Positions 28,154 through 64,000 of a stretch of 64,000 nucleotides of DNA are shown in pieces (within the stretch, counting starts at the first letter, position 1; each line of letters begins with the position of its first letter). The position numbers were made by a program, and so were the translations under genes. The stretch lies in IMG/VR virus record IMGVR_UViG_3300032257_000002, positions 1 to 64,000 of that record; one strand, given 5' to 3'. The notes under the pieces were generated by a model that had not been told where the DNA came from, ran no database searches, and worked only from the letters and a program-made list of their open reading frames with translations. The stretch comes from a virus (taxonomy: Duplodnaviria; Heunggongvirae; Uroviricota; Caudoviricetes).

Positions 28154-28360
28154 ATGGTAAGTAGAGAACTAGTTAGAGAATTAGACGATATGTTGGAAAT
28201 ACTTAAGAGTAATGTACTGGATGGCAGCTATCACCAAGGGTTGTATAATGGTGTGGAACTAGCTAGATCGATAATAACGGATGAAGAGGCTGTGTTTATT
28301 GAAAAAGATGGGTCTTTAGATACTAACGGCGTAACACGAAATCCGGAAAGATTTATCTAA
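28154..28360 (+). CDS. small acidic protein, PE-tail family (ends ...RNPERFI)
   Basis: ORF track; TAATG overlap with the next gene. Confidence 0.5.
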   Translation: MVSRELVRELDDMLEILKSNVLDGSYHQGLYNGVELARSIITDEEAVFIEKDGSLDTNGVTRNPERFI

Positions 28361-46467: not shown

Positions 46468-47676
46468 ATGGCAATGACAGAAGAAGAGCTGTACGACATG
46501 AGTGATGATGAGCTAGAGGCTGCTTTTAAAGCAGCTAAAGCCCAAGAAGCTCCAGAAGAAACAGATGAACGTAACGAGTATGACGAAGATCTCGGTTACG
46601 ATGAAGACAAAGAAGTGGCATTACTAGATGAGCCTGAAGAGCTTGATGGTGATGATGATGAAGAAGAGGAACTACTTGACTTGGAACAACCCGACGAGGA
46701 ATCCGATGATAATAGTTTAGAAGATGACGAGGAAGATGAATCGGAAGAGGACTCGGAAGATGAAGATGGTGAACTCGACGGAGAGCCGGAAGCAGATGAT
46801 GATAATCCTGATGAAGATGAAGATGAATCGAAAGATGATAAACAGCCAGTACAGGTTGAAAAGCGTAAGTATAAAGCTAATGGTAAAGACTTTGAGTTTT
46901 CTGACCAAGAGATCTTCGACAAGTTTGGGCAAGTGTTCGGACAAGCGATGAACTACACGCAGAAGATGCAACAGATTAAGCCGTGGCGACAGACCATTGA
47001 CGCTATCGAAGAGGCTAAGTTGTCGCATGACGATGTCAATCTAGCTATAGATGTACTGAAGGGTGATAAAGAAGCTATTGCAGCGCTTCTAAAGAGAACA
47101 GGCGTAGACGCCCTCGAATTAGACACTGACAATGCGGTTTATACGCCGAAAAATTATGGTCGGAATGATGCTGAGCTGGCCATAGAAGATATTGTTTCCG
47201 AAATCTCTAAAGATAAGGAATACGCGGTTACATATGATGTGTTGGAAAAGCAATGGGATTCAAAAAGTCGTGAGGCTTTTGTAGAAAGTCCAGAGATGAT
47301 CCGTCAATTGCACATCGATGTTAAAAGTGGTATGTTTGATACAATATCCCCAAGAGCTAGTAAGCTAAAAGTATATGATGGGGGATCTAAAAGTGATCTA
47401 GACTACTACATGGAAGCTGCAGGGCAGTACTTCTCTGAGCAAGCTCAGAACGAAGAACGACAGGCTGTAACTGAACAGCGTGATGTTGCACGAGAGAAGG
47501 TCGAGAAAGTTAAGACTGAGACACGTAAACGTCAAGCTACTAAGTCAGCTTCGCAAAAACGGAAGGCAGCTGCACCGACAAAGAAAAGTGCAGGGCCTAA
47601 AAAGACTGTAGACTACTTGGACACTTCCGATGAAGATTTCGAAGAGTGGTATACTAAAATCGGGGACTCAGTTTAA
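46468..47676 (+). CDS. putative scaffolding-type protein with poly-acidic low-complexity N-terminal region
   Basis: About 110 residues of D/E-rich sequence, then a helical region; directly upstream of the major capsid gene. Confidence 0.45.
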   Translation: MAMTEEELYDMSDDELEAAFKAAKAQEAPEETDERNEYDEDLGYDEDKEVALLDEPEELDGDDDEEEELLDLEQPDEESDDNSLEDDEEDESEEDSEDEDGELDGEPEADDDNPDEDEDESKDDKQPVQVEKRKYKANGKDFEFSDQEIFDKFGQVFGQAMNYTQKMQQIKPWRQTIDAIEEAKLSHDDVNLAIDVLKGDKEAIAALLKRTGVDALELDTDNAVYTPKNYGRNDAELAIEDIVSEISKDKEYAVTYDVLEKQWDSKSREAFVESPEMIRQLHIDVKSGMFDTISPRASKLKVYDGGSKSDLDYYMEAAGQYFSEQAQNEERQAVTEQRDVAREKVEKVKTETRKRQATKSASQKRKAAAPTKKSAGPKKTVDYLDTSDEDFEEWYTKIGDSV

Positions 47677-47707: not shown

Positions 47708-48913
47708 ATGGCAACAAATGTATATGGTAACGGTACAACAACATCCACAGCGGGTGCTAATACTATCGTTCATTACTATGATCGTGCTGGTGTAAATGCA
47801 GCAAACCGTGTTAACGTATATCAACAATTCTCGGATCGTAAATCGATGCCACAGAGATATGGTAAAACGTTCAAAATTTCTCGTTTCGAACACATGTATG
47901 ATCGTGCATTCGACGATGCAGACTTCGCGGCTAAAGGTTATATGACTGCACGTGATATCGCTGATATGAACACTGCTTTGTCAGCTGCTACACTCGCTGA
48001 AGGTGCTGCGGATGTTAATAAGCGTTCACTACAGAAAGTTACTTACTCAACAGAGTTTGCTCGTTACGGTGAGATGATTGATTATACTGATGAAGTTGAT
48101 ATCTGGTCTGAAGACTATATCCAGGTTCGTTATCGTGAAGAACTAGGTGAACTAGCTAACTCTCGTATGGAAGATCTTATTCAGCGCGATATGCTTGGTA
48201 CAACTACTGTAATGTATTCTGGTGCTGCTGGTGCAATCACTGAAATCGGTACAGGTGCTGCTGCTGATGGTTCAACAGATGCTGACCACGTCGTTTCTTA
48301 TGACTTGATTCGTAAAGCTGTTCGTAAGCTGACTCGTAACCGTGCTAAGAAGAATACTCAGATCGTTACAGGTTCTACAAAGATTGGTACAACTCCGGTT
48401 GCTAAAGCATTCTATGCTGTTATCGGTGCAGATGTAAAGTCAGATCTTGAAACTCTTACTCGTGGTTCTACTTACGAAACAGAATTCGTATACACACCTG
48501 TTCACAAATATGCTGCTGCTTCGACAATGGCTGAAGGTGAAGTTGGTCAAATGCACGAAGTTCGTTTCATTGAAGCTGAGTCTGCAGTAGTTTATCGTGA
48601 AGCAGGTGCTAATCCACCAGCATCTTACCTAGGTGACCTACAGGTTTCTGGTGTTATTGATGCAGCTTCTGTTACTCCTGCTGATCGTGGACAGTTTGAC
48701 GTATTTCCAATCCTTTTCCCAACTGAAGGTGCTTTTGCAACTGTCGGTCTTAAAGGTCTTGAGAAAATCAAGTTTAACTCTAAGTCTCCAGCTCAGGTTG
48801 AGTTGATTAACCCGTACGGAACTACAGGTTTCTTCTCTTACAACTTTTTCTACGCAGGTATCATCCTGAAAGAGGAAGCACTTTTAAAAGTATTAGTGGC
48901 AGCAAGAAATTAA
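47708..48913 (+). CDS. major capsid protein (401 aa)
   Basis: Position after the scaffold-like gene, size, and codon usage typical of highly expressed genes (cgt/ggt/gct bias). Confidence 0.65.
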   Translation: MATNVYGNGTTTSTAGANTIVHYYDRAGVNAANRVNVYQQFSDRKSMPQRYGKTFKISRFEHMYDRAFDDADFAAKGYMTARDIADMNTALSAATLAEGAADVNKRSLQKVTYSTEFARYGEMIDYTDEVDIWSEDYIQVRYREELGELANSRMEDLIQRDMLGTTTVMYSGAAGAITEIGTGAAADGSTDADHVVSYDLIRKAVRKLTRNRAKKNTQIVTGSTKIGTTPVAKAFYAVIGADVKSDLETLTRGSTYETEFVYTPVHKYAAASTMAEGEVGQMHEVRFIEAESAVVYREAGANPPASYLGDLQVSGVIDAASVTPADRGQFDVFPILFPTEGAFATVGLKGLEKIKFNSKSPAQVELINPYGTTGFFSYNFFYAGIILKEEALLKVLVAARN

Positions 48914-48953
48914 ACCCTGCGTATAATTTTCTTCTAAGCTAATCCATGCTATA

Positions 48954-48970
48954 CTCCTCTAAAAGAGGAG
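48954..48970 (+). promoter_or_regulatory. hairpin CTCCTCT-AAA-AGAGGAG sequestering the Shine-Dalgarno of the HNH homing endonuclease gene
   Basis: The GAGGAG of the RBS forms the 3' arm; ATG at 48976. Confidence 0.4.
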
Positions 48971-48975
48971 GTAGT

Positions 48976-50139
48976 ATGAACCTACAACTACAAAAAATAT
49001 GCTCAAAGTATAACGGTGTAGTCCACAAAGACTTTCCAAACTACATAATTTCCCGACATGGTGAAATATACTCACTTAAACGACAAAGGTTCCTTGACAA
49101 AACTTTACGAAAACGTGATCCACAAGATCTCAATAGTAAATATGATGAGATGGTCCATATAGTAGTAAATAATACTCCCCGAACTATTGCAGTTCATAGG
49201 CTATTAGCGACTGTTTTCATCCCTAATCCAGGTAATAAAGACACTGTAAACCATATTGATGGAAATTCTTCTAATAACTCGCTTAGTAATCTCGAATGGA
49301 TGACGCAGAGCGAGAATTCATCACATGCCCATGCACTAAACTTGATATCCGGCAAGTACACTAAATGCGTTGTAAGTACTATAAAGTATAAAGAAGAGTA
49401 TGTTGCCACTTATAGTAGTTTAACCGAGGCAGCAAAAACTGTTGATAATGTAAATCCTCAACGCTGTATTGGATTAATAGCTGCAGCAGCAGTTAATAAT
49501 CAGTCAGATAAGGTAAGTGTAAATGGTGCACCTTACACCTCCCAAGGGTATGTATGGAGGTACGCAAGCAAACAGAAGAAACAATATATACAGGAAAGTG
49601 TTGAATACGCTGATTGGTCGATATTAGATGTAGACTACAAGGTTTTTTCTGAGAACACAGACTACTTAATAACAGTAGATGGTAGAGTATATGACAACGT
49701 AAAAGAAAGATGGCTCACACTGTCGGTAATTACTGCGAAAGGTAATAGATTGCCTTATACAACCGTCTCATTACGGAATGGCAGTACTTATAAACAGTAT
49801 AGGGTAGCCAAACTGGTAGCAGGTGCTTACGGAAAGAGCTACACTAAAGTAGACTTTATAGATGGAAACATTTGTAACTGCCATCTGGATAACCTATGTG
49901 AGAAAGAAGCTGGTACGAATTCAAGGCCAGTGATTGCCTACAAGTTAGTATGGAAAGACGTAAATATAGAGTACAAGAATTCTACGAGAGAAGTAGGACA
50001 ACTTACTGGAATAACTGTAAAAGCGATACCTGAAATAATAATACAAAACAAAGATATACCTCTGCAACTAGAGTACACGGATACTACATGTCCCTACACA
50101 AGAAATGGTTATGTCCTACGAGGCTTAAGTAAAAGTTAA
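48976..50139 (+). CDS. HNH homing endonuclease (HNH_3 family) inserted downstream of the capsid gene
   Basis: NPGNKDTVNHIDGNSSNNSLSNLEWMTQSENSSHAHA is a classic HNH_3 core. NUMOD-like NYIISRHGEIYS. The RBS lies inside a hairpin. Confidence 0.7.
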   Translation: MNLQLQKICSKYNGVVHKDFPNYIISRHGEIYSLKRQRFLDKTLRKRDPQDLNSKYDEMVHIVVNNTPRTIAVHRLLATVFIPNPGNKDTVNHIDGNSSNNSLSNLEWMTQSENSSHAHALNLISGKYTKCVVSTIKYKEEYVATYSSLTEAAKTVDNVNPQRCIGLIAAAAVNNQSDKVSVNGAPYTSQGYVWRYASKQKKQYIQESVEYADWSILDVDYKVFSENTDYLITVDGRVYDNVKERWLTLSVITAKGNRLPYTTVSLRNGSTYKQYRVAKLVAGAYGKSYTKVDFIDGNICNCHLDNLCEKEAGTNSRPVIAYKLVWKDVNIEYKNSTREVGQLTGITVKAIPEIIIQNKDIPLQLEYTDTTCPYTRNGYVLRGLSKS

Positions 50140-50843: not shown

Positions 50844-51383
50844 ATGACAATTCCAAAAGGTGCTGAGTTCGGGTTAACGATTACCGTAGTAGAGAAAGAC
50901 TCGTTCCTGCCTCAGGATCTAGTTGCTATGGATGTGGCTGCTTCTACATTTAAGCTGACTAAACTGGCTGACCTATGCGATGTCACAGTAGGTACAGTTA
51001 CACTAACAAGACCTGCTGACGTCACCTATACTTTCGAAGATGTGACGACGACTACAGCCGACTACGTAGTAGACAGTGTAATCTTGGATACAAGTTCTGG
51101 GCTAGTATATACATGTATACTAGGTAGTACTACTGGTGCACTACTGACTAATGCTACATACTTTACAGAGACTACTACATACCTTGATGGCAAGGTAGAT
51201 GTTCTACTGGATAGCACACTAACTGCTTCCCTAGACTACTTACGTGGAGACGCAGTAGATAACTATTATTTGAAGCCGACATACCAAGGTGTGATTAACA
51301 TTAAGTTTACTGACGGTACTCCGGAACGTACTGCTATTATTGAAAAGGTATATGTAGCTCCAACAGGAGTTGTATGTGTCTGA
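50844..51383 (+). CDS. hypothetical Thr-rich structural protein (179 aa)
   Basis: ORF track. Confidence 0.5.
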   Translation: MTIPKGAEFGLTITVVEKDSFLPQDLVAMDVAASTFKLTKLADLCDVTVGTVTLTRPADVTYTFEDVTTTTADYVVDSVILDTSSGLVYTCILGSTTGALLTNATYFTETTTYLDGKVDVLLDSTLTASLDYLRGDAVDNYYLKPTYQGVINIKFTDGTPERTAIIEKVYVAPTGVVCV

Positions 51384-53025
51384 TATTGAAGTAAGTGCAG
51401 GGAATACTGTTACAGTAGAGACTGAAAATAACGTCACTGTCGAAACTCCAAATAACACAGCTACTGTCAGCACGGATAGTAGTGGTGTAGTAGATGTAAA
51501 TCCTTACGAGTATAGTTTAACTAGTTCTGGGATATACACAGGTAATCTAACCGGTGGAATACCTATATGGTTGCAAACTGCAATTGAACAGGAGCTAACT
51601 GAAGGTGAAGGTAACCTGACATCTGTTGTAGCTGATCTAGCTTCATTAGTAACTGTACTGGAAGCTGGAGTTAACCAGAACATTACGAACATCAATACAA
51701 CTAACACTAACTTGGCTGCGCTAGAAACTACGGTTGTGTCTAGATTAGATGGTAATGACGCCGCAATAGTTAATCTTGACGTAACTAAGGTAACGGCGAC
51801 TGAAGCTACAGCAATATCTGCAGATGTGGTGAGTACTAGTTTTGGTGGTAATGTTGATGCGTATATCGGTACAATAGCTGCTACGTATGTGGATGCTAAT
51901 AGTGCTATTGCGCAGGAAGTTGATACGCTAGTGACTAGTGTAAATGGTGTAACAGCTAGTGTAAGTGAAGTGTCTGTGGCTAGTGTAGATGAAGGCGAAG
52001 CAAGAGCTAAACACTCACTGGTTGTGAATGCGGATGGTAATATTGCTGGGTATGTAGCAGAGGCTGGTACTACAAGTAACTTTACGATTGTCGCTGATAC
52101 GTTTAAAGTGCAGGGGACTACTACAGGATATACTCCAATAGCTGTAGATACAGTTACTGGTAAGTTAAAGTTCACTGGTGACGTACGGTTTGAAGGACTA
52201 GGCATTGATGGTGGAAGCACTACTATTGACGGTGGTAAGATTACTACGAACACACTAGATGCTAATAGACTTACAACCAACTTTGCGTGGATCAACGGCA
52301 GTGTCCAGTCAAGTGATTTTACTACTGTAGGTGGAGCAGGTTTTAGACTTAAAGCTAATGCTGCTGGAACATCCGCAGACCCTTCAATCTATGGCGCGTA
52401 TATCCGAGGTGGGACAATCTCCGCAGTCGAATTAGAAAGCTCTACACTTAATGTTAGAGATATTACTGTTACCACAGATTCTGGCCTGCCTACACGTACT
52501 GTGATAGCGTCTGTGACCACACCTACAGTTACCTCAACATCAGCAACCTGGACATTCGATATAGGTCACTGGAGCGCCACTACAACAACTAACAGGCTTG
52601 CTGGGCCTGCATCTATCCTTACACCGGCTGGAACACCATTAATAAACTATACATCTTTCTACTCAGGCAGCACACCAGACACTCGCCCAGCATCTATGTC
52701 GTATAATGGCTGGCCTATCCTCTACTTTGATCCCGATGTTGCTACAAGTACTGCGTTCAGCATAACAGTGAATGGCGTAGCTTGGAATGCCCCTACAGGC
52801 ATTACAACCACTACACCGACTATTAACGGCATCACGTTCGCATACATACACAGCGGTGTTGGGGATGACGACCAAATCGCGGTGTTTATAAAGCCTATTT
52901 GCTCCTCCCCAACAACGTGGAGTGGAGATAAACTGGTAATTACATTTTCTAGTGCCAGCACGTGGCTTCAGTGGGATGCTGGTCTTAGGTCCCATCAAAT
53001 CACACTATTAGCCCACAACGTATAA
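51370..53025 (+). CDS. tail structural protein (551 aa, Thr/Ser/Gly-rich)
   Basis: ORF track; composition. Confidence 0.55.
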   Translation: MYVSDIEVSAGNTVTVETENNVTVETPNNTATVSTDSSGVVDVNPYEYSLTSSGIYTGNLTGGIPIWLQTAIEQELTEGEGNLTSVVADLASLVTVLEAGVNQNITNINTTNTNLAALETTVVSRLDGNDAAIVNLDVTKVTATEATAISADVVSTSFGGNVDAYIGTIAATYVDANSAIAQEVDTLVTSVNGVTASVSEVSVASVDEGEARAKHSLVVNADGNIAGYVAEAGTTSNFTIVADTFKVQGTTTGYTPIAVDTVTGKLKFTGDVRFEGLGIDGGSTTIDGGKITTNTLDANRLTTNFAWINGSVQSSDFTTVGGAGFRLKANAAGTSADPSIYGAYIRGGTISAVELESSTLNVRDITVTTDSGLPTRTVIASVTTPTVTSTSATWTFDIGHWSATTTTNRLAGPASILTPAGTPLINYTSFYSGSTPDTRPASMSYNGWPILYFDPDVATSTAFSITVNGVAWNAPTGITTTTPTINGITFAYIHSGVGDDDQIAVFIKPICSSPTTWSGDKLVITFSSASTWLQWDAGLRSHQITLLAHNV

Positions 53026-53036
53026 AGGAAAAATAA

Positions 53037-54164
53037 ATGGCAATAACATATAACCCAGTCACGCTGACTGACATAGATAATCAGGTAGTAGAGCTGTACC
53101 AAAAGCTGATGTCAGCATCGACCAGTAAAGATAGTGTGTATCTTAAAGCAAAAGAAACTGTAACACAGATTCTAAATGATGCAGGACTAGATGCTAGAGA
53201 ACGTGCACAGATACTTTCGCAGACTATCGGAAGTATGGTGAATGGTATTACGGCACAGTCTCTACAGGCAGCTATAGACCTAGCTAAGGATGATAGGGAT
53301 AGTGAGTATCTACTTACTAAACTGCGTGAAGATACTAAACTAGTGACGGCGCAAATAGCTAAGGTAGAGAAGGATATTGAAGATGCAGAAGCAGCGAAGA
53401 ATCTAAAGATCGGTCAAGGCTGGTTATTGCAAGGACAGATGTATAGAGATTATGGTGCAGTACCGGATAACCTAGTGTATGCAAATAACGAGTTGGCTGA
53501 CATAGATTACGATGCGAGTTATGGTACAAAGTATGAGAGTATTCGTCAAGCTCAAGCCGGAACATATAATACGTATGCCGGTTCGTATAGAGCTAACGGA
53601 TATGTGTCGCTACCGCTGAATGCTGATGGTACATTGGCTAGCGGTGTAGCTGGAGACTCTGAAGGTCTGGTTCACGCGCAGACTAATGTTGCTATCAGAC
53701 AAGAGCGCGGCTTCGACGATAATATGAGACAACACGTTGCAAATAGTTCATCTAGTATGATCAGTTTGCTGTTGAGTACAGAAGCTAGTGGTATTGACTA
53801 TACGCCGTACCTAGCTCAATGGACTGACTCAATCGAGTACCTAAATACTACAGCAAATGTAACAGCTGGTACTATAACTACCACAGTCATTCCGGCATCT
53901 ATATCTATTGCCGTAGGCGGTACTATATCAGGAACTACACTGAATATTATAGCTGGTACTTCTGTAGAACTGGTTATTACTGATGGTGTAAGTCTGTCAG
54001 CTACTGTAGTCGCACTAGTACAACTTGATGGCTCGTGGTCAGCGACATTTGCACCAGCAGACTTGACAGGACTGATAGCTGCAGCAGGTAACGTAACTTC
54101 GACCGTAACAGATAGTACAGGTAAACAACGAACAGATATCGATGCAGTAACGCTAGTAGCGTAA
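53037..54164 (+). CDS. tail structural protein (375 aa)
   Basis: ORF track. Confidence 0.5.
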   Translation: MAITYNPVTLTDIDNQVVELYQKLMSASTSKDSVYLKAKETVTQILNDAGLDARERAQILSQTIGSMVNGITAQSLQAAIDLAKDDRDSEYLLTKLREDTKLVTAQIAKVEKDIEDAEAAKNLKIGQGWLLQGQMYRDYGAVPDNLVYANNELADIDYDASYGTKYESIRQAQAGTYNTYAGSYRANGYVSLPLNADGTLASGVAGDSEGLVHAQTNVAIRQERGFDDNMRQHVANSSSSMISLLLSTEASGIDYTPYLAQWTDSIEYLNTTANVTAGTITTTVIPASISIAVGGTISGTTLNIIAGTSVELVITDGVSLSATVVALVQLDGSWSATFAPADLTGLIAAAGNVTSTVTDSTGKQRTDIDAVTLVA

Positions 54165-54176
54165 GGAAGGTGAGAG

Positions 54177-55949
54177 ATGGGCTATATAACTAGAGATGCT
54201 GTAGGCCCGGCTGTCACTGCGTACGTAGCTGCGTCATTCTTCAAGAATAGGATGCTTATGGCAGACCTAGGTTGGCCGACAACGACAATCGACGGTAGGT
54301 TGGTATTCGGTAGACTGTACTACTACCAGAATGGTGTAGGAGTGTATAAGACACCTAGACATCTGGCTATCTATAAACTGCTGAATATGGATGTAGGTGA
54401 TCTAGAGGCTCAAAGCTACGAGGGTGTAGAAAATGCGTATCTGTATGTAAGAGGCGTGAATATAGAGTATGCAGTAACACGTACAGAAGCTGAGGGTTAC
54501 ATTGAAGAATTCAGTCCACTAATCTATCCAGATAATCCTGATCCGTTTAATCCTGATCCTAATCCCGATCCAATAACTGATCTAAATCCAGATCCATTTA
54601 AAGGTACAGAAGATGCTCAGTGGGATTCGGAGGGGTGGATCACTTCATATATTACGTACACACCACCAACATCAACACAGGTGAACGAGTTCATAACAGA
54701 CGCTGAAGTAATAGCACTGATCAATGCTAACGATAAAAACACACTGTGGTATGACAGCGAAGATTCGTCTAGGTTGACCGCGCTAGCACTACTCGACTCC
54801 TCTAATGTAATGTTTGAGAAGAACATACAAATACGTGTCAAGGAACTAGAGCAGAAAACAACCTACGTGAGAAATAGGCATAAATCCTATCAAGGGTCTA
54901 ATAGTGCTAGATACATAAAAAGTGTGATTGTCGAATATAAGTTTCGTAGGATACTGGACCCTGCGGATGTAGCGGCTGACGGGTATATGGCAGCAGTAGC
55001 CGCTGAAGTAGCTGCGCTGGACGATATCCATCAACTAGGTGGCTTCGTAGGTAGGCGAGTAAAGACAGTAGATTTCATAGCTAACTCTACAAAATCTAGC
55101 TTTGCGGAACAGTTGATAGACATGTATGACTATGTCGTACCTATTACAGAGACAGCTCTGAACTATGGTGGGTATTTAAAAGTCGATGGGATGAGTGCTC
55201 TGAAAGTAAGAGACTTCATGGAGATATTCGTAAAGCAGATAGCTTCAGGACATCAACAAAAGAAGACTAAGTGGTATAAGAAGTTACTAGTTGTAATAGT
55301 AGACATTATAGTGGTAGTGGTAGCGGTAGTAGTATTCATAGTTACTGGCGGTAATCTGGCTGCAGTGTCCTTCGTGTTTGCGTTAGGTGCAATGGTACAG
55401 ACAGCTCTGGCTGCGTATTGGGTGAAGAACGGTGACTACGCTGCAGCGCAGTATGCGAGTAAACATGCGATGTATCTAGGTACAGCTGCACAGATAGCCG
55501 CTATAGCAAATATCTTCTACGGTGATCCGGGACTAATGGAAAAGATAGCTGCTGCGACTATGGCTGTAGCCAAGGCTACAAAAAACGAAGACCTTGAGCT
55601 GGCTGCATCTATCGCTGCACTAATATCCTCCGGGTATGCGATGACACAGTCTACTAGTAATCTGATGCTAACTGGTGTATCAGCACTCAATCAGTCATTC
55701 ACTGTGTACTCTAGGTATATCAGTCCTCCGGATAAGGGTATAGAAGAACTGCAGGGTAAACTAGTAGAGTCAGAGCGCGAGCTAGAAGACTTGTCGGGTC
55801 CTGAAAAGATAGATACAGTAGAAAGAGAGTTCAGCGATCCGTACACTAACTATATAGACGTAAATGAAAAGATGCAAGGTATGCCGTACTTGCTGACACA
55901 CGGTAGAAATGCGGCACTGATGGAAAAGTACTACGACTCAAACTACTAA
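54177..55949 (+). CDS. virion protein with NPDP repeats and C-terminal multi-TM region (possible ejection/membrane-penetration protein)
   Basis: DNPDPFNPDPNPDPITDLNPDPF. Hydrophobic stretch LLVVIVDIIVVVVAVVVFIVTGG... Confidence 0.5.
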   Translation: MGYITRDAVGPAVTAYVAASFFKNRMLMADLGWPTTTIDGRLVFGRLYYYQNGVGVYKTPRHLAIYKLLNMDVGDLEAQSYEGVENAYLYVRGVNIEYAVTRTEAEGYIEEFSPLIYPDNPDPFNPDPNPDPITDLNPDPFKGTEDAQWDSEGWITSYITYTPPTSTQVNEFITDAEVIALINANDKNTLWYDSEDSSRLTALALLDSSNVMFEKNIQIRVKELEQKTTYVRNRHKSYQGSNSARYIKSVIVEYKFRRILDPADVAADGYMAAVAAEVAALDDIHQLGGFVGRRVKTVDFIANSTKSSFAEQLIDMYDYVVPITETALNYGGYLKVDGMSALKVRDFMEIFVKQIASGHQQKKTKWYKKLLVVIVDIIVVVVAVVVFIVTGGNLAAVSFVFALGAMVQTALAAYWVKNGDYAAAQYASKHAMYLGTAAQIAAIANIFYGDPGLMEKIAAATMAVAKATKNEDLELAASIAALISSGYAMTQSTSNLMLTGVSALNQSFTVYSRYISPPDKGIEELQGKLVESERELEDLSGPEKIDTVEREFSDPYTNYIDVNEKMQGMPYLLTHGRNAALMEKYYDSNY

Positions 55950-57771: not shown

Positions 57772-57829
57772 GGAATACTAAAGCAAAAAATAGGTATACT
57801 ATACCATAAATACTACATACGGGGATAGA

Positions 57830-60800
57830 ATGACAAACGAAGATATGAATATGTGGCAGGAGAGGCTGCAAAGTAATACTGAGGCCTTCTATCCTGACTC
57901 ACCGATAGAGACTCCTCCAGCACTAAATAAAATCAGTACACTAGCTAAAAATAAAGATCAGAAACTAAACAACCTATCCGGCAATCAACTACAAATGGGG
58001 CTATCTAACCTATTTACAGATGCGCTAGTTTTAAAGGATGATGATGGTCGCTATATTCAAAAAACGCAAGTAGGTGCAGATGGTAACGCAGAATTTCTCA
58101 AAGAGAGAATACCTGATACAACACTAAAAAGCTATTATGATAAAGAGCTCGGGGAAACAGTAACTTACGATAGAGACACTACACGTAACCTGTACTTGTT
58201 CGGTCCTGAAGCAATGAAAGGTGCACCCGCCTATAAAGCTGGATTAGCTGACCGTGATGCTGGCGCTAAAGCACGATATAACCCAAATGACCCTGGAGCA
58301 CTACTAGAGACGCAGAATCGCATAGACTTGTTCGTAAAACATCGTGGACGACAACCTACTGCTCAAGAAGTAGAAAAACTAAAATATGGATGGGAGACTG
58401 GTCCTGAAGGCGTGCAAGCAGGCGCTGAACCATTAATGAATACTGAGTTTGAGTATGACGCCGCTACTAAATACGAAGATATGCTGCATCATAATATTGG
58501 AATGGATGCCGCAGCAAAACTGGATCAGGATATATACTCTCACTACTTAACCAGTGGTAGAAGTCCTGAGTTCTTAAAGACTCACCCTAAATTTGCGGCT
58601 CAATACGCAGCTCTAGGCAGTGGTGCAAGTGAATACTACAATGTGGATAATCCATTGATGTCAGGAGGTGGACCTACAGACTTACCTTCTGAATACCAGA
58701 TAGATACAAAACCATCATCAGGCTACGTAGGTGCTATGAAAGGTACTACTAAAGACAGAGATGAAATGCTAGGTGAATCAGTGGATATTGCACAATCTAG
58801 CCTAGTACAAGCGTGGGGTAAAGCTAATAAGCTGCTAGTAGACTCTACAAAAGCTATCGGTAATAAGCTAGGATTCTCACAGAAGCAGATGGATGAGTTT
58901 GTATCTGATGAGTCTGGTATATTCGGTACGAAGTTCGATAACCTAGCTAAACGCGAAGTGGCTGATAAGATCACTGGTGTAATGGCTAAGACTCGTGAAG
59001 AACAACAAGCTGGAATGGATGACGCGCTAGCAAATATAAAAAAAGGCAACTATGCTGAGGCGTCATTCGACGTATTCAAAGTACTGCCGTATATGCTAGG
59101 TGATAGTGCAGGGGAAATGGCTCAGATAGCAATGGGTGCTCCAGGTATAGCTATGGCTGTCGGAGCACGTGTAAACATGGATGCTGAAGAGTACGAAAAG
59201 AATAATGGAGAAAAGCCTGATACAAACTGGTTCCTAGGCAGTACGCTAACAAATGCAGCAGCTCTATTCGGAGAAAGATTTCTACTAAAAAGTGGTATCT
59301 CAGGTATCATAGAAAAAGGTGTAGCAAAAGCACAGAGAACTGGTGGTGTAGCGTTGTCGACTGTCGGTGAAGCTGCACAAGAATACTTCGATCAAGTACA
59401 ACAAGAATACCAAACACAAAAAGAAGGTGATAAGTCACTGGTAGAGATTGCAACAAGTCCAGAAGCGCAACTATCTGCTGTAGCTGGTGGTGTAATGGGT
59501 GGAGCTCTGCGAGGAGCAGGTGAAACGACTTCAGGAACACTAGAGACACTAAACGAAATAGCAGTACAACAATCGAATAAGCGAAAGAAAGCAGAAGAAC
59601 AGCAAAAAGTTGAAAGTGGAGATGTAACTAGTGTAACCGGCAAAGTAGCTACAGAAGCTACGGAAAACTTCCTAACTAGCGTTGAGAGTAGTGAAGTACT
59701 AGATGATGCTACCAAAAAAGACGCTACAGCTATACGTGACAATACCCTAACAGAGGTAGAATCACTAAGTGAAAGACTAACTAATCTGGACCCTGAATCA
59801 GATGAGTATGCAGATGTGGAAAGTGTACTGGAGACTAAACTAGGTCATCTAGAAAGACTAAATACAATCGTGCCGGCAGATCAGACTACTGATACAGCAG
59901 AGACTACTACAAAAGAAACAGTAACTAAAGAACAACTTCAGAGAGCACAGGATATAGTGGCTAAGTATGATGCTGTTGAAGATCGAGCTCTAACAGCTGA
60001 TGAACTAAATGAAGTAGGTGCGGCTAGAGTACTACTAGAGGAAGCAGCAACACTAAACACTACAAAGTCTGCTGAACAGGTAACCGAAGATCCGGTGGCA
60101 CTACAGACAGAACTAGATACTATAGACCCTACTGAAGGAAAGCGTAGCGCTAAAAGAGCTGTGGAGATCGAAGCTAAACTGGATGCTGCAATACCACAAG
60201 TCGAAGAACGACTAGGTACTATAGGGGAAGAAATCTCTGTACTAAGTCAAGACGAAGAGGCTAACGTAGACCAAATAGCAGCACTGATCGCTGAGCAAGA
60301 TACACTAGGTAAAATAGTAACTGCTAAGGAAACTAAAACAGTAGAAGCACGCCAGAAAACGTATGATGAACTCATAGATGCTACTATAGAAGAAGGTGTA
60401 GCTACTAAAGAAATTCCGGATACTAAAGAAGCAAGAGAACAAGTACGCGAAATGCTGAAAGAGAGAATGCCTAAGTTCTCTGCTGAGCTGTCTCAAGATA
60501 TAGAACGTAGTGATCTACAGCTGACATCTGCTATCAGTGAATCTAAGGATATCCGTGGAGTAGTAGAGAAGGGTGGTAAGAAAGAAACTCTACAAGATGT
60601 AACTACTGTAACAGATTCTACTATAGACTCTATGGTAAAAGGTAAAACTGAACTAGGTGACCTAGCTAAGCTGACTATGGGTAGATTCGTAAGTAAGGTA
60701 CAAGAAAGACTGAAACAGCATCTATCTAAAGGTGCACCAGTACAGAAGACTCTAGAGAAAATCTACACTAAAGTAAAGGAAGCTGTAACTTCTGGTAATA

Positions 60801-63800
60801 AGGCAGTAGAAAAACTAGCTACGTTGACAGAAGGTGAAGTAACATCTGAACGTGTGATGAGAGCAGCTGCTATCGCTGTAGCAAATGTACATAAAAGTAT
60901 CAAGTCGGAAGAAGATATACAAGCAAATAAAGGTATCTATACTCCGGTAGACTATACACGTGTAAGTAATATAGTAGTGCAGATCGGTAAAGAGTACATG
61001 AACTCGTATGGTATGAGACTGTCTGGCAATAACGTGAAGACTAATGAACTGTATGCTAAGATCGGTCAGACTATCCTGGATGCTGCACAAGACCTAGGTA
61101 TGGTACAAGTGCAGAAACAGCGTATACCACTAATCGATATGGTAGATGCTGATGGTATGAGGATCACTAAGAGTAATCCAGATAACCTAGTGGTAACACA
61201 GACTGACGGAGTAACGTATGTCGATGAAGACGTAGTGAGTATAGTAGAACCAGAAGCAGATAAAGGTGAAGCGTCAATAGGTAAAGCTATGGATACACTG
61301 ATCGGTGCACTGCGTCCTACTACATATGAAGTACCGACAGAACAACCAGTGACTGAGGTCCCTACCGATAATAATGAAGCTATATCGAAAGAGCATACTG
61401 AAGTAATTCAGAAGATGAATGCTATGAAATTCAGAATAAAGCCTGAGTTTCTACAGCTGCTGAAAGACCTAAAGAAACGTAAAGAAGACCTAGGTCTTTC
61501 AATGGATCAATTCCTCAGCAGAGATCCGATAGCAAAAGCTATGATCGGTGTGAACACTGCAGGTACGATGCTGACTAAAACATCTGAGCAAGGTAGAAGG
61601 CTGAACCGATCGGATAACCTAGCTAAGCTACTAGATAACCTAGAGATGCTAGATGAGGACTTCCACTTCAACTATGAGAGTGCTGTCAATACTCGTATAC
61701 ACGTAATGCAAACACTGCTGGAGTTCCAGGGTGATAAATATATGGCTAGAAACATCCTAAGTGGAGCTGAGTATGAGATCGATCCGTCTACAGAAGAAGG
61801 TAAACAAGAACTACATGTTCTAAAAGAAGCTATAGCCGATGACCTATTCGGTGATCCTGCTAAACTGGACCTAGTGGATAAATCTAAACAGCCTGAAACT
61901 AATAAAGATATAGCGAAGCTAAAAACACTAGATAAATGGGTAGCTAACTATAATAAGACTGGGAAGTTCCACATAGAAGATGCTGGAAAGATGGCTAAAG
62001 AACTAGGTATGTCTAGTCCGTTCAAAGCTATGTCACTAGTAAAAGCAGTAGCTGAACTGAATGGTGTAGCTGACGGTAAAGTAAAAACTGACTATATGGG
62101 TCAATTCGATATGAGTGCGTCTGGAGTAATCAATACACTACTAGATCTAGTTGGTGAACCTGGTGTAAATGAAATACTAGATAAACTGCGTACTGGTGAG
62201 ATGGACCCGTACATGTATCTAAACAGTATACTAGAAGAGCAGACTAGTGAGACATATGAAACACTGAAAGCTACAATGGCTGAGATAAACGAGAATATCG
62301 ATATCGATAGTCGTGATATGGCTAAGTATACCGTAATGAAGTGGTTCTACGGAGCTGCGAATGAGACAGTGGCTAGAGAGATGTCACATGACCTAGCTGT
62401 AGATATAGTGATGGAAGGTGTTACAGGATTCAATGATGATGCTGTGGCATTCCTGAATAAAGCGATCGGTAGTAATAAGTACGTAGTAGATGTACTAAGT
62501 GAGGACCAAAGTGGTACTCCTGTGTATGATATAACTCCTGATGATATGAAAGCCTTCGAAAGCTGGATCGTCGATAACATCGCAAAACCATATGTAGAAC
62601 TACTACCTAAAGCATTCCCTGCTGTAGTCGCGTATCATAAGACAATGTCAGAAATCTATACTGGACTAGAACGTCTAGGATGGGATGGCAAGATCGGTAC
62701 TGCGATGAGCGCTATGCTAGGTGATGGTAACAAGTTCAAGATGAGCACGAAGAAAGCTAAAGCTATGCTCAATATGCTGACTAATGAAAAAGGTGAAGTA
62801 GAGGTAGGTGGTAAATTCATTCCAGTGAATGAGATGTTCCTAAACCAAACATCACTGAAAGTAAATCCTCAGCACGCTGCTGATGCTGCTCAGCTACTGA
62901 TCACTATGCAACACCTAATGGAAGAGTTCGGCGAAGATGCTATAACAGCAATGACAGTACACGATGCTATATATACGAGCCCGAAACTACTGATCGCTGC
63001 TAAAGCTAGATTCGAAGAACTGCTGAAAGAAGTAGCTATCAAGTATGACTTCAGAGATATGGCACTAAGAGAGCTAGAATCCCTACTAGAGAATCTTCCT
63101 GAGGATCAAAAAGATAGTGAGTCGGCTCTAGAGAAAAGAGTAGCAGAACTACGTAAAGAGATAGATGAAAGTCGTGCTCGTAAGAAGGATATCCTAACTA
63201 ATCCTGAGTACACAACTAACTTCTTCGGAAGTAAGACGATCGAAGTGCAACCGACAGGAAAGATAAGTCTAGATGAGACTGCAAAGCCTACGAAAAAAGC
63301 ACCAAGTGCGGAAGCTATCAAGAAAGAGATGGAAAGACGTAAGGCTGAAAAAGAAGCAGAGAAAGCGAAGCCAAGTAGTATAGATAAACTGTATACAGCT
63401 ATTGAAAGTAAAGATACTGAAGCTATAATCGAAGCTATAGAAAACATAGAAGTCTCAGAAAAGTATATATCTCTGAAAGAGAAAGTACTGAAAAATCTGA
63501 CGTCTGATGAGATCACTATACATGAAGGTGAAGACTTCGCAGGTGGATATGGTCGTATCTGGATGGGTGACAAAGGTGCTATACTAAAAGAGATGACAAC
63601 TGGTGAAAATCAAGGTGATACACTGATGAAAATCATGTCTCACGAGATAGACCACGGGTATACGTATAGTTATATAGAGAAAGCACTACAAGGTAAGAAG
63701 CCTGCTGAGATCATATATCTCCAGAGAGTGCTAAGTAAACTAGAGAAAGCGATGAAGACCTCTAACTTCAGACCAGAGGTACAGGAACGTCTAGCATATA

Positions 63801-64000
63801 TACTAGATAGTAATGTGACTACAGATAACCTAGAAGCTCATAGAATAAGTGAGCTGATCTCAGTAATGAGGAATGAGCCTAAAGTGGCAGAGGCTATAAG
63901 TGGTATACTAAGTGAGCAGAGTAAGAAGACTCTATTCCAACACATAGCGAAAATCATCAAAGATATAGTAGACTATGTCAAGAAGATTGGTGTAGATAAA
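57830..64000 (+). CDS. giant virion-associated RNA polymerase (N4 vRNAP-like), first 2,057 codons; gene continues past window end
   Basis: Uninterrupted frame from ATG 57830 to the window end. T7-like motif A QFDMSASGVINTLLDL (62102-62149) and motif C TVHDAIYT (about 62951-62974). Upstream LTMGR. HEIDH zincin-like motif at 63641-63655. Confidence 0.7.
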   Translation, partial: MTNEDMNMWQERLQSNTEAFYPDSPIETPPALNKISTLAKNKDQKLNNLSGNQLQMGLSNLFTDALVLKDDDGRYIQKTQVGADGNAEFLKERIPDTTLKSYYDKELGETVTYDRDTTRNLYLFGPEAMKGAPAYKAGLADRDAGAKARYNPNDPGALLETQNRIDLFVKHRGRQPTAQEVEKLKYGWETGPEGVQAGAEPLMNTEFEYDAATKYEDMLHHNIGMDAAAKLDQDIYSHYLTSGRSPEFLKTHPKFAAQYAALGSGASEYYNVDNPLMSGGGPTDLPSEYQIDTKPSSGYVGAMKGTTKDRDEMLGESVDIAQSSLVQAWGKANKLLVDSTKAIGNKLGFSQKQMDEFVSDESGIFGTKFDNLAKREVADKITGVMAKTREEQQAGMDDALANIKKGNYAEASFDVFKVLPYMLGDSAGEMAQIAMGAPGIAMAVGARVNMDAEEYEKNNGEKPDTNWFLGSTLTNAAALFGERFLLKSGISGIIEKGVAKAQRTGGVALSTVGEAAQEYFDQVQQEYQTQKEGDKSLVEIATSPEAQLSAVAGGVMGGALRGAGETTSGTLETLNEIAVQQSNKRKKAEEQQKVESGDVTSVTGKVATEATENFLTSVESSEVLDDATKKDATAIRDNTLTEVESLSERLTNLDPESDEYADVESVLETKLGHLERLNTIVPADQTTDTAETTTKETVTKEQLQRAQDIVAKYDAVEDRALTADELNEVGAARVLLEEAATLNTTKSAEQVTEDPVALQTELDTIDPTEGKRSAKRAVEIEAKLDAAIPQVEERLGTIGEEISVLSQDEEANVDQIAALIAEQDTLGKIVTAKETKTVEARQKTYDELIDATIEEGVATKEIPDTKEAREQVREMLKERMPKFSAELSQDIERSDLQLTSAISESKDIRGVVEKGGKKETLQDVTTVTDSTIDSMVKGKTELGDLAKLTMGRFVSKVQERLKQHLSKGAPVQKTLEKIYTKVKEAVTSGNKAVEKLATLTEGEVTSERVMRAAAIAVANVHKSIKSEEDIQANKGIYTPVDYTRVSNIVVQIGKEYMNSYGMRLSGNNVKTNELYAKIGQTILDAAQDLGMVQVQKQRIPLIDMVDADGMRITKSNPDNLVVTQTDGVTYVDEDVVSIVEPEADKGEASIGKAMDTLIGALRPTTYEVPTEQPVTEVPTDNNEAISKEHTEVIQKMNAMKFRIKPEFLQLLKDLKKRKEDLGLSMDQFLSRDPIAKAMIGVNTAGTMLTKTSEQGRRLNRSDNLAKLLDNLEMLDEDFHFNYESAVNTRIHVMQTLLEFQGDKYMARNILSGAEYEIDPSTEEGKQELHVLKEAIADDLFGDPAKLDLVDKSKQPETNKDIAKLKTLDKWVANYNKTGKFHIEDAGKMAKELGMSSPFKAMSLVKAVAELNGVADGKVKTDYMGQFDMSASGVINTLLDLVGEPGVNEILDKLRTGEMDPYMYLNSILEEQTSETYETLKATMAEINENIDIDSRDMAKYTVMKWFYGAANETVAREMSHDLAVDIVMEGVTGFNDDAVAFLNKAIGSNKYVVDVLSEDQSGTPVYDITPDDMKAFESWIVDNIAKPYVELLPKAFPAVVAYHKTMSEIYTGLERLGWDGKIGTAMSAMLGDGNKFKMSTKKAKAMLNMLTNEKGEVEVGGKFIPVNEMFLNQTSLKVNPQHAADAAQLLITMQHLMEEFGEDAITAMTVHDAIYTSPKLLIAAKARFEELLKEVAIKYDFRDMALRELESLLENLPEDQKDSESALEKRVAELRKEIDESRARKKDILTNPEYTTNFFGSKTIEVQPTGKISLDETAKPTKKAPSAEAIKKEMERRKAEKEAEKAKPSSIDKLYTAIESKDTEAIIEAIENIEVSEKYISLKEKVLKNLTSDEITIHEGEDFAGGYGRIWMGDKGAILKEMTTGENQGDTLMKIMSHEIDHGYTYSYIEKALQGKKPAEIIYLQRVLSKLEKAMKTSNFRPEVQERLAYILDSNVTTDNLEAHRISELISVMRNEPKVAEAISGILSEQSKKTLFQHIAKIIKDIVDYVKKIGVDK

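Follow-up and report, generated by a model that had tools for sequence, protein, structure and literature searches.

Does the giant open reading frame that runs off the end of a 64,000-nt stretch of viral DNA (hereafter, the window) encode an N4-type virion RNA polymerase (vRNAP), and where does that protein end? The phage is a podophage with a genome of ~103.5 kb, and its relationship to N4 shows in the portal, which has 63.5% identity with its counterpart in Alteromonas phage AD45-P1. On translation the frame proves uninterrupted to the window end, as the initial annotation stated, with 2,057 codons and zero stops; the nearest in-frame stop on the 5' side is at 57791. L010, the contig of the window itself, shares 16,624 nt with it at 0 mismatches, and the 2,128-aa protein P0001 is identical to the window ORF at all 2,057 residues. 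The gene does continue off-window, as had been anticipated, but for merely 71 more codons: in L010 a stop follows codon 2128, and the C-terminus reads ...KQIKECK. With a probability of roughly 0.88, this gene encodes the first and larger piece of a two-gene, split N4-type vRNAP, piece 1 comprising an N-terminal domain (NTD) of ~900 aa, a T7-type RNAP and a zincin-like C1 module (Table 1).

Table 1. Features of the vRNAP piece 1 locus; nucleotide positions are those of the window.
Feature	Residues	Position (nt)	Strand	Remarks
RNAPII-like candidate gene	664 aa	23206-25200	-	Separate small gene in window
Cys-free gene	137 aa	56014-56427	+	Directly 5' of giant gene; 0 Cys
Cys-free gene	444 aa	56437-57771	+	Directly 5' of giant gene; 0 Cys
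Shine-Dalgarno-like GGGGA		57821-57825	+	4 nt before ATG 57830; read from sequence
vRNAP piece 1 gene (NTD, polymerase, C1)		57830-64000	+	Full gene 2,128 codons
Piece 1 gene, last 71 codons and stop		64001-64216 (window-equivalent)	+	Read from contig L010
N-terminal domain	1-~914	57830-60571	+	Cys-free, Ala/Gly-rich, charged
T7-type single-subunit RNA polymerase domain	~915-1800	60572-63229	+	Supported by conservation, fold, profile
T/DxxGR-equivalent AVNTR, then FQGDK..R	1285-1289	61682-61696	+	N1287, R1289 conserved
Motif A QFDMSASGVINTL	1425-1437	62102-62140	+	Catalytic Asp D1427
Motif B RDMAKYTVMKWFYG	1495-1508	62312-62353	+	R1495, K1499, Y1507 invariant
Pre-motif C HAADAAQLL		62873-62899	+	H1682, D1685 invariant; aligned to T7 residues 775-853
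Motif C TVHDAIY	1709-1715	62954-62974	+	Catalytic Asp D1712; H1711, D1712 invariant
C1 zincin-like (MPTase-type) module	~1841-2057, onward to 2128 off-window	63350-64000	+	Model, literature
HExxH (HEIDH)	H1938, E1939, H1942	63641-63655	+	At least 90% of 36 sequences; invariant in alignments A2, A3
Invariant R and E	R1987, E2008	63788-63853 (63788-63790, 63851-63853)	+	Columns R147/R148, E168/E169 (alignments A3, A2)

Family conservation starts near residue 915; 74 relatives were found, from which an alignment of 36 sequences was drawn. The AlphaFold model of residues ~915-1800 (pLDDT 86.1, pTM 0.82) finds its best Foldseek match in the N4 mini-vRNAP (2po4; E 4.9e-15, probability 1.00), the top matches being N4 mini-vRNAP and N4 gp50, followed by mitochondrial and T7 RNAPs. 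Searched against the PDB, the family profile matched only T7-type RNAPs (N4 RNAPII, 7e-5; T7 RNAP, 2e-4), with no sequence-level match to N4 mini-vRNAP even at E <= 10; it matches N4 gp50 residues 1355-1697 at an E-value of only 0.003. Searches of Pfam and PHROG return no match for the piece 1 ORF, and it goes unrecognized by the RNA_pol model of Pfam (PF00940). The proposed N4-type reading of residues 900-1800 is borne out by the best structural match and the T7-type profile matches, and the model supports a T7-type single-subunit RNA polymerase fold for this region.

Across the 36 aligned sequences, motifs A, B, pre-C and C hardly vary. Motif A, QFDMSASGVINTL, lies where it had been placed, near residues 1425-1440, with D1427, A1430, S1431, G1432 and N1435 near-invariant in the family. 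Motif C is also present with its HD invariant, although it had been numbered 1707-1713 and occupies 1709-1715; it aligns to VHD of N4 RNAPII and IHD of T7, and pre-motif C, HAADAAQLL, stands in place of HSQDGSHL in T7. Motif B, RDMAKYTVMKWFYG, had been missed in the initial annotation; its R-x3-K-x7-YG spacing is exactly that of T7 and N4, and HMMER aligns it to motif B of T7 and N4 RNAPII. The equivalent of T/DxxGR is AVNTR, separated from motif A by 138 aa (135 aa in N4); at least 90% of the 36 sequences keep N1287, R1289, Q1300, D1302, K1303 and R1307, the first two being invariant. LTMGR (residues 948-952), previously offered as TxxGR-like, is ruled out, being unconserved and ~480 aa before motif A. 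Of 20,000 shuffles that preserve composition, 1.1% contain the pattern of motif B by itself and 0 contain T/A/B/C in order; both figures are only indicative, as the patterns were defined post hoc.

The NTD has no family matches in Pfam/PHROG searches, and its correspondence to the N4 NTD is presumed from position. In a hydropathy scan, two stretches, around residues 426-445 and 476-495, come out as weakly hydrophobic. By position, the NTD is presumed to serve injection and membrane association; the NTDs of N4 and DEV are described in the literature as membrane-associating and flexible.

What lies beyond the stop? In L010 an ORF of 940 aa, beginning MACEFEG and preceded by the Shine-Dalgarno TAAGGAT, opens 8 nt after piece 1. 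Over its whole length it can be aligned to the last ~900 aa of fused homologs (E = 0, 44% identity). The C2 family profile matches N4 gp50 within residues 2714-3452 (E 2.5e-13), and this piece 2, just off the window, is the counterpart of the N4 gp50 C2 domain. The N4 vRNAP architecture first ascribed to the frame holds for its long NTD and the polymerase core that follows, but not for a single ~3,500-aa chain, C2 being a separate gene. The two-gene layout is also seen in five relatives (L005-L009).

In N4 (gp50) and many relatives the protein is one chain, of 2,650-3,530 aa, and the stop at 2128 could in principle be an error of sequencing or assembly, or be bypassed by read-through or programmed frameshifting, within one continuous vRNAP of ~3,000-3,500 aa. 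Such a reading has been proposed for AD45-P1 in GenBank, where the RefSeq record is flagged 'potential frameshift', and in a study that concatenated the AD45 ORFs and invoked read-through (PMC10654107). It is hardly credible here: the stop, Shine-Dalgarno, new ATG and frame change recur in six independent contigs, with gaps of -4 to +26 nt; the C-terminal tail of the short forms is conserved and ends with Cys, and their partners begin M-x(1-3)-C; and the split pair carries ~60 extra residues at the break (~26 + ~33) that are absent from fused forms. In the Alteromonas AD45 phages, a split vRNAP was already shown experimentally in 2013, the stop being verified by PCR re-sequencing and the products seen as two gel bands of 270 and 175 kDa (PMC3821669).

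Piece 1 owes its C-terminal part to C1. The HExxH motif, part of MSHEIDHGY and initially read as either a metallopeptidase-like module or a coincidence, is invariant in the family and has its counterpart in HELVH of N4 gp50, which favors a module. H1938, E1939, H1942, R1987 and E2008 are invariant among sequences with only 14-38% identity in the module; therefore, HExxH is not a chance motif. The downstream Glu that had been suggested as a check is E2008, a candidate third zinc ligand. In the predicted fold, the C1 model (pLDDT 86.1) has a three-stranded sheet and then the HExxH helix; fold searches return no significant zincin match. The C1 family profile does not match N4. Off-window, the module ends in a tail predicted to be a helix. 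The N4 HExxH region has already been described as a zincin-like MPTase/C1 domain (PMC5512222; PMC13434306), and by motif and position the present module appears to match it; we infer a peptidase activity.

The motif is short, however, the zincin match is non-significant in both fold searches, and an RNAP-only lineage has no such module at all; moreover, in the cryo-EM papers on N4 the CTD has a regulatory, autoinhibitory role, with peptidase activity unreported, and N4 gp50 is called a polyprotein that is left unprocessed. A chance motif, or a structural remnant devoid of a catalytic role, is still unlikely: chance is ruled out by the five invariant residues, the catalytic-base Glu is kept throughout, a small sheet before the HExxH helix is the usual zincin layout, and a published HHpred analysis ties the N4 region to zincins (PMC5512222).

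How might two chains act as one? Cys is absent from all 2,057 aa of the window ORF (P ~1e-5 at a phage Cys background of 0.55%); the sole Cys of piece 1 is C2127 of 2128, in a tail predicted to be helical, and the sole Cys of piece 2 is C3 (...KECK and MAC...). In 27 short forms, which are related sequences and non-independent events, the last Cys always falls within the final 3 residues (27/27) and is the only one in 25, and each partner protein carries just one Cys, at position 3-5, whereas fused forms have none (14/14), nor has N4 gp50. One Cys per split terminus was found at 10/10 junctions examined, and splits at the NTD/RNAP boundary and three-way splits follow the same rule. This junction-Cys pattern is a new observation of the present analysis. 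Cys paired at every break and absent from continuous chains points to two residues acting on each other, and the pattern suggests an inter-chain, end-to-end disulfide that re-joins the pieces. The extra helical tails, which fused homologs lack and at the end of which each Cys sits, would dock at the break and C2127 and C3 would bond, re-creating one continuous thread for packaging and ejection; the reducing cytoplasm could then re-open the bond.

Disulfides normally do not form in the cytoplasm, the site of virion assembly. This reducing environment argues against the bond and in favor of another role for Cys residues that are real and selected: joint metal binding, attachment to another virion component or some other terminal function. 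Consistent with such a role, a putative zinc-binding module adjoins the piece 1 tail, periplasmic oxidases otherwise select against Cys in ejection proteins, and the disulfide is read from a sequence pattern; the AD45 authors took their Cys as evidence against injection (PMC3821669). A non-disulfide role nonetheless seems doubtful, if plausible, given that the Cys are always paired across each break, at three break positions, and lie 0-5 residues from the termini, as an end-to-end link threading a ~30-35 Å channel needs, while other conserved metal ligands adjoining them are not evident.

By analogy with N4, the capsid would hold both pieces, which would enter the host by ejection before or together with the DNA; the polymerase would then transcribe early genes, a likely one being the 664-aa RNAPII-like gene. 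We infer packaging and ejection solely from homology, the position of the gene and its paucity of Cys. The piece 1 gene ends the structural operon, after the two small Cys-free genes, which by position probably correspond to the ejection-protein genes gp52/gp51 of N4; sequence homology to N4 gp51/gp52 was not detected. The order ~130 aa, ~450 aa, giant and C2 is also found in L007 and L008, and Cys suppression is known from the literature for the Schitoviridae ejection operon. A T7-like polymerase fused to other domains and expressed late yet left out of the virion, be it an intracellular phage RNAP or a family A DNA polymerase/primase-like protein, would fit a profile whose sequence lies nearer T7 RNAP and N4 RNAPII than N4 mini-vRNAP, as well as the AD45 authors' argument that Cys-containing pieces are uninjected (PMC3821669). 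It is very improbable: the best structural match is N4 mini-vRNAP/gp50, the gene's place resembles Schitoviridae ejection operons, its 2,057 residues lack Cys, around it lie a region as long as a gp50-type NTD, the C1 HExxH module and a C2 partner with homology to N4 C2, and a small RNAPII-like gene is already present.

The polymerase core shares with T7 RNAP, N4 RNAPII and mitochondrial RNAPs the motif A D, motif B R/K/Y, pre-C H..D and motif C HD, with fold matches at E 1e-12 to 1e-10, but these single-subunit enzymes are not virion-packaged and lack the giant NTD, C1 and C2. The zincin-like MPTase domain found in 'polyvalent proteins' of phages and plasmids (Iyer et al., 2017; PMC5512222), known in the N4 CTD as its C1 subdomain (PMC13434306), likewise has HExxH directly after an N4-type RNAP module plus a downstream invariant Glu, and C1 here corresponds in position to N4 residues 2130-2448 or 2124-2375; it differs in its end, a helical tail that is specific to the split and carries a terminal Cys.

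Escherichia phage N4 gp50 (3,500 aa; PDB 2PO4, 9PNQ/9PNT/9PNR) has the same order of NTD, T7-type polymerase, C1 with HExxH and C2, with T/DxxGR, A, B and C in like order and similar spacing, a C2 homologous at the profile level, and a late-operon gene beside small ejection-protein genes. It differs in being a single, Cys-free polypeptide without pairwise sequence similarity to piece 1, in motif A (ExDGxxxG, EADGVTNG, vs QFDMSASG here) and motif C (FDG vs HD), in the size of its polymerase domain (~1,100 vs ~885 aa) and in the distance from motif C to HExxH (~280 aa, with HELVH at residue 2228, vs 226 aa from D1712 here).

The closest cultured relatives are the AD45 phages (vB_AmaP_AD45-P1 to P4, Efbeekayvirus; genome ~100-104 kb), whose ORF127/ORF126 form a two-polypeptide vRNAP (Garcia-Heredia et al., 2013; PMC3821669). 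The sequences are strongly diverged, with no tblastn match at E 1e-5, HExxH was sought in both AD45 ORFs and not found, and the AD45 paper reports no RNAPII gene, in contrast to the candidate in the present window. The pieces measure 2,495 and 1,409 aa in AD45 vs 2,128 and 940 aa here, and AD45 motif C, at ~2328, lies only ~165 aa before the end of ORF1, so the break position differs. Yet the RNAP profile matches AD45 ORF1 (E 1e-14) and the C2 profile ORF2 (E 0.003), and in both phages the giant polymerase gene ends the structural block, a separate C-terminal-domain gene follows, and a Cys pair marks the junction (...KHCKQ and MTIC... in AD45).

Translation bears out the uninterrupted frame claimed by the initial annotation: the giant ORF holds 2,057 codons with 0 stops up to the window edge, its ATG is preceded by a GGGGA ribosome-binding site, and the closest in-frame stop lies upstream of it (see the table). 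The protein had also been taken to run off the window as a single chain of more than 2,057 aa; it does continue, but a stop follows already after codon 2128 (...KQIKECK-stop). This end is read from the window's own contig (L010, ENA k141_1285957, 103,519 bp), which was reached through the 444-aa gene upstream of the giant ORF and shares 16,624 nt with the window with 0 mismatches. The complete product, piece 1, corresponds to the relative P0001 (2,128 aa), identical to the giant ORF at 2,057/2,057 positions. On the contig, piece 1 is followed by a TAAGGAT Shine-Dalgarno sequence, an 8-nt gap and a gene for a 940-aa protein, piece 2 (MACEFEG...), beyond which there is a strand switch. Over its whole length, piece 2 can be aligned with the last ~900 aa of fused homologs (E = 0, 44% identity), and the profile of this C2 subdomain matches N4 gp50, the virion RNA polymerase (vRNAP) of Escherichia phage N4, within residues 2714-3452 (E 2.5e-13). 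This phage encodes an N4-type vRNAP in two genes: piece 1 carries the polymerase and an HExxH module, and piece 2 is the C2 part. The initial annotation is corrected on three points: the true length, the single-gene picture and the role of the LTMGR string.

The window comprises a minus-strand metabolic/early block (1-26 kb) and a structural block on the plus strand. The portal is N4-like, with its nearest relatives in the ~100-kb Alteromonas AD45 podophages (63.5% identity). Directly upstream of the giant ORF are Cys-free genes for 137-aa and 444-aa proteins, in the same gene order as in relatives; BLAST shows no similarity of these two proteins to N4 gp52 and gp51. No repeated hairpins or 11-mers that could be vRNAP early promoters were found in the window. 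For four large structural-block ORFs, family searches give few hits or none. Two of the products, of 375 and 590 aa, lack Cys and show weak similarity to AD45-P1 gp004 and gp003; they are possible additional ejected proteins or internal components of the virion. The window also holds four or more HNH, endonuclease VII or homing-type endonuclease genes, Cys-rich (1.5-3%) where their neighbours are not, one of which sits straight after the major capsid gene within the structural operon.

Several genes of the minus strand deserve mention. ARAGORN predicts two tRNA genes (local GC up to 0.43), one without an assigned type and the other a tRNA-Asn whose anticodon, ATT, is unusual. Close to them is a 722-aa polynucleotide kinase/phosphatase and RNA ligase fusion (PHROG 8238, E 1e-195), an arrangement suggestive of tRNA repair as by T4 Pnk/Rnl. 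A 430-aa Cys-free protein belongs to the SPFH/Band 7 family (Pfam E 5e-13; PHROG 11908). A 664-aa ORF carries the T7-type RNAP motifs DYRTRSYY (T/DxxGR), EDATNGGLQH (motif A) and THSIDGTSL (pre-C), and matches PHROG 414 'RNA polymerase' (E 3e-12) and, below threshold, Pfam RNA_pol (19.7 vs 22 bits). N4 RNAPII (gp15 + gp16, 673 aa combined) seems to have its counterpart in this ORF, as one chain. An RNAPII-like gene was not found in the AD45 phages (PMC3821669).

Features of the window and of the giant protein; conserved residues are those shared by at least 90% of the sequences in a 36-sequence alignment
Feature	Nucleotides (strand)	Residues	Sequence or conserved residues
Endonuclease genes	2010-3242 (-); 3203-3943 (-); 28360-29373 (+); 48946-50139 (+)		
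Kinase/phosphatase-ligase fusion	7391-9559 (-)		
tRNA genes	12180-12253 (-); 13021-13094 (-)		
SPFH/Band 7 protein	13426-14718 (-)		
664-aa RNAPII-like ORF	23206-25200 (-)		
TerL	30542-32101 (+)		
Portal	38980-40944 (+)		
Family-orphan ORFs (980, 551, 375 and 590 aa)	42996-45938 (+); 51370-55949 (+)		
N4 gp57-like	46468-47676 (+)		
Major capsid protein	47708-48913 (+)		
Closest in-frame stop 5' of giant ORF	57791		
Giant ORF	57830-64000 (+)		
LTMGR string		948-952	
SEQGR string		1252-1256	
Candidate T/DxxGR equivalent		1285-1289 (AVNTR)	AVNTR...FQGDK..R; N1287, R1289
Motif A		1425-1437	QFDMSASGVINTL; D1427, A1430, S1431, G1432, N1435
DPY			D1459, Y1461
Motif B		1495-1508	RDMAKYTVMKWFYG; R1495, K1499, Y1507
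Pre-C			H1682, D1685
Motif C		1709-1715	TVHDAIY; H1711, D1712
HExxH	63641-63655	1938-1942	HEIDH (in MSHEIDHGY)

All strings quoted in the initial annotation are present in the translated ORF, and its proposal of a T7-type, N4-like polymerase core is supported by invariant motifs and by the fold. The 36 aligned sequences have 24-43% identity to the query, and the positions that at least 90% of them share coincide with the catalytic motifs. The catalytic Asp of motif A, D1427 (FDMSASGVIN), is invariant in 36/36 and 17/17 aligned relatives. Motif B, between the proposed motifs A and C, has exactly the R-x3-K-x7-YG spacing of T7 RNAP and N4 vRNAP; HMMER aligns its three conserved residues to motif B of T7 (R627/K631/Y639) and of N4 RNAPII, and the pre-C and motif C region to T7 residues 775-853. 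R1495, K1499 and Y1507 are invariant, as are H1682, D1685, H1711 and D1712; some relatives have Ser in place of the motif B Gly. When the protein is shuffled 20,000 times, the pattern of motif B recurs in 1.1% of cases and the ordered four-motif set in 0, a result that is only indicative since the patterns were written after inspection of the sequence. LTMGR, initially read as a TxxGR-like motif, is not conserved in the 36-sequence alignment and its spacing is also wrong; another candidate, SEQGR, was dropped, its Gly alone being conserved. The probable equivalent of T/DxxGR is AVNTR, with invariant N1287 and R1289 and a fitting distance of 138 aa to motif A (135 in N4, 112 in T7); the Gly and the T/D are absent from it.

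The vRNAP is very diverged and missed by current annotation. Pfam (even at E <= 1) and PHROG searches with the whole giant protein give 0 hits, PF00940 (RNA_pol) included, a 'faint' PF00940 hit being recorded for one relative, P0016. Phmmer against PDB sequences returns nothing relevant, tblastn against 50,697 GenBank phage records finds no match, and neither the polymerase core nor the 444-aa neighbour as query retrieves related loci in viral contigs. Pairwise BLAST against N4 gp50 and the AD45 ORFs gives matches at noise level only; one of these, which seemed to place motif A within AD45 residues 890-966, is spurious. An exhaustive HMMER search with residues 901-2057 identifies 74 relatives, 62 of them with E < 1e-10. 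A profile of 17 sequences (residues 1000-1800) matches T7-type RNAPs only, among 177,635 PDB sequences: N4 RNAPII (6dt7_B, E 7e-5) and T7 RNAP (E 2e-4), with alignments that run through DPY, motif B, pre-C and motif C. The polymerase profile matches AD45 ORF1, the first of the two AD45 vRNAP pieces, at residues 1632-2399 (E 1e-14) and N4 gp50 at residues 1355-1697 (E 0.003); the sequence link to N4 itself is only marginal.

The AlphaFold model of the polymerase domain (pLDDT 86.1, pTM 0.82) is most similar in Foldseek to N4 mini-vRNAP/gp50 (2po4, E 4.9e-15, prob 1.00, TM 0.51-0.54), followed by yeast and human mitochondrial RNAPs and T7 RNAP. The top ten matches are N4 mini-vRNAP or gp50 with the exception of one mitochondrial RNAP, and the best 50 of the 75 PDB hits with E <= 1e-3 are all N4 vRNAP, mitochondrial or T7 RNAPs (TM ~0.45-0.54). 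Conserved motifs and the predicted fold together make the assignment to the T7/N4-type polymerases well supported. The region ahead of the polymerase, where gp50 has an NTD of ~900-1,000 aa, spans ~914 aa, is Cys-free, contains weakly hydrophobic segments and has no detected homology to the N4 NTD. Several homologs (P0009, P0015, P0017, P0024, P0031, P0032) have an inserted segment, either in the fingers of the polymerase or beyond the polymerase, with a D-T-E-T-T-like motif (e.g., YVIFDTETTD, YIVVDTETTG). By eye, this motif is similar to Exo I of DnaQ-type 3'-5' exonucleases, and some N-termini look like nuclease or lytic transglycosylase modules.

The HExxH string beyond motif C was initially flagged as possibly marking an added metallopeptidase-like module. 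An HExxH module does lie there, one that is already known rather than new: H1938, E1939, H1942, R1987 and E2008 are all invariant across the family, and HEIDH is placed in a long helix (model residues 88-114). E2008, 66 residues after H1942, is the downstream Glu that had been proposed as a check and is a candidate third zinc ligand, the position taken by Glu in gluzincins. In N4 gp50, HELVH is found at residue 2228, ~280 aa past motif C, and aa 2130-2448 were described as a conserved HEXXH region of the zincin-like MPTase superfamily, to which N4-like RNAP modules are almost always fused (Iyer et al., 2017, PMC5512222). The 2026 N4 structure defines C1 as residues 2124-2375, with HExxH, and C2 as 2376-3500 (PMC13434306), and the DEV paper reports gp71-C with a putative zinc-binding motif. 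The C1-plus-junction profile retrieves nothing from the PDB, and the C1 profile finds nothing in N4. In the literature on N4 and polyvalent proteins, no demonstration of zinc binding or peptidase activity was found for any vRNAP. A stand-alone polymerase lineage (~1,000-1,450 aa; P0049, P0053, P0055, P0060, P0061, P0066, P0067; locus L012 1940-5698) has separate NTD and C2 genes on either side; the HExxH module was not found in the pieces of this lineage that were checked.

Among the relatives, fused forms measure 2,640-3,530 aa, and short forms, which terminate soon past the HExxH module, ~2,030-2,450 aa; others are NTD-less or are RNAP-only pieces of ~1,000-1,450 aa. The breaks seen are between NTD and Pol, between C1 and C2, and three-way, and in AD45 just past the polymerase; the two-gene layout of this phage is common to five relatives. 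The split itself is prior art, and the object is a highly diverged AD45-type split N4 vRNAP. In the cultured AD45 phages, the stop codon was re-sequenced and two polypeptides, of 270 and 175 kDa, were seen on gels (Garcia-Heredia et al., 2013, PMC3821669). A later survey put the AD45 split down to a gene-calling error or read-through (PMC10654107); it discarded hits of <2,500 aa or without ExDGxxxG, filters that would remove the clade of the giant ORF, which has QFDMSASG. Fusion into one chain by read-through or frameshifting is very unlikely, since the termini are conserved, each gene has its own ribosome-binding site and the gaps between the genes vary. Splitting of gp50 at domain boundaries is natural and widespread, follows a consistent pattern and is not an annotation error. 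In AD45-P1, an 11.7-kb "N4 gp50-like, potential frameshift" region with ORFs of 2,495 and 1,409 aa lies behind the structural genes; the RefSeq record (NC_021532.1 90623-102305; locus L004 624-12348) marks a 'potential frameshift' misc_feature there and no vRNAP CDS. That the region contains two real genes, to be annotated as such, is shown by its junction Cys pair together with the PCR and gels of 2013.

The termini created by splitting are marked by cysteine. The window ORF (2,057 aa) has no Cys at all (P ~1e-5 at a phage background of 0.55% Cys); full-length piece 1 (2,128 aa) has a single one, C2127, at the split terminus, and piece 2 (940 aa) a single one, C3. In all 27 short forms, the last Cys is no more than 3 residues from the end, and in 25 of the 27 it is the sole Cys; the 14 fused forms and N4 gp50 have none, the 8 NTD-less forms have exactly one, at position 3-4, and the 7 RNAP-only pieces have exactly two, one per end. 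Partner proteins start with MSNC, MAKAC, MSC, MKTC, MAC and MAC. The same holds at other breaks: where NTD and RNAP are split, the upstream piece ends in ...GYNIC-stop and the next starts with MSEC..., and a three-way split reads ...EEEIVIC-stop, MKC...NTIC-stop, MAC.... The junction is ...KECK-stop, MAC... in this phage and ...KHCKQ-stop, MTIC... in AD45-P1; Cys is present on both sides in 10/10 junctions examined. Three explanations of terminal Cys were set aside: there are no intein-sized segments as in split inteins, no signal-peptide-like hydrophobic stretch ahead of the Cys as in a lipobox, and no additional conserved ligands as in a shared zinc site.

Cys depletion of the ejection proteins of Schitoviridae is known, and has been explained by passage through the oxidising periplasm (PMC3821669; DEV paper). 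The AD45 authors read the Cys of their own proteins as a sign of non-injection, and do not state whether their gels were reducing or non-reducing (PMC3821669). No mention of cysteine or disulfide was found in the 2026 N4 structure paper (PMC13434306), and a text search on vRNAP with disulfide or cysteine found no report of terminal Cys pairs. As far as we have found, the strict junction-cysteine rule, a Cys to either side of each break and no others, is new, and it is probably the one result that will surprise specialists.

The rule suggests how a split enzyme may be handled as one. By analogy with N4, both pieces would be packaged, with C2 as the encapsidation determinant, and both would be ejected, the polymerase then transcribing the early genes; both AD45 polypeptides were seen on gels (PMC3821669). 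Relative to fused homologs, piece 1 is extended C-terminally by ~26 residues and piece 2 N-terminally by ~33, and the piece-1 tail is predicted to be helical up to its Cys. The two tails could dock, and C2127 and C3, positioned by split-specific helical tails, could form an end-to-end disulfide that restores a single thread, to be packaged via the C2 piece and drawn through the tail channel. The N4 CTD is packed against the Pol domain, which it keeps autoinhibited until the promoter binds (PMC13492108); re-reduction in the cytoplasm would cut the thread and free the polymerase from an autoinhibitory C2. From the distribution of Cys, we give this reading a probability of roughly 0.45. Its main rival is that the Cys pair acts otherwise, e.g., in metal binding or in attachment to another component.

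Most of this analysis is confirmation; two points, the widespread splitting and the Cys rule, go further. The pattern of splitting supports a "beads-on-a-string" view of how the enzyme is built and translocated. The Cys rule bears on the packaging and threading of a ~350-kDa enzyme through a ~30-35 Å tail channel and reverses the earlier reading of AD45, in which Cys meant no injection. If the disulfide reading is true, a redox-cleavable linker would do the job proposed for proteolytic processing in fused polyvalent proteins.

Set against N4, the differences are of sequence and of gene organization. The N4 motif ExDGxxxG is absent: the giant ORF has QFDMSASG in its place, with E-x-D-[AM]-x-A-S-G as the consensus of its family. 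The gp50 type is a single chain of ~3,000-3,800 aa, and the vRNAP of this phage is split into 2,128 and 940 aa; C2, which in N4 is needed for encapsidation and forms part of gp50, is here the product of a separate gene.
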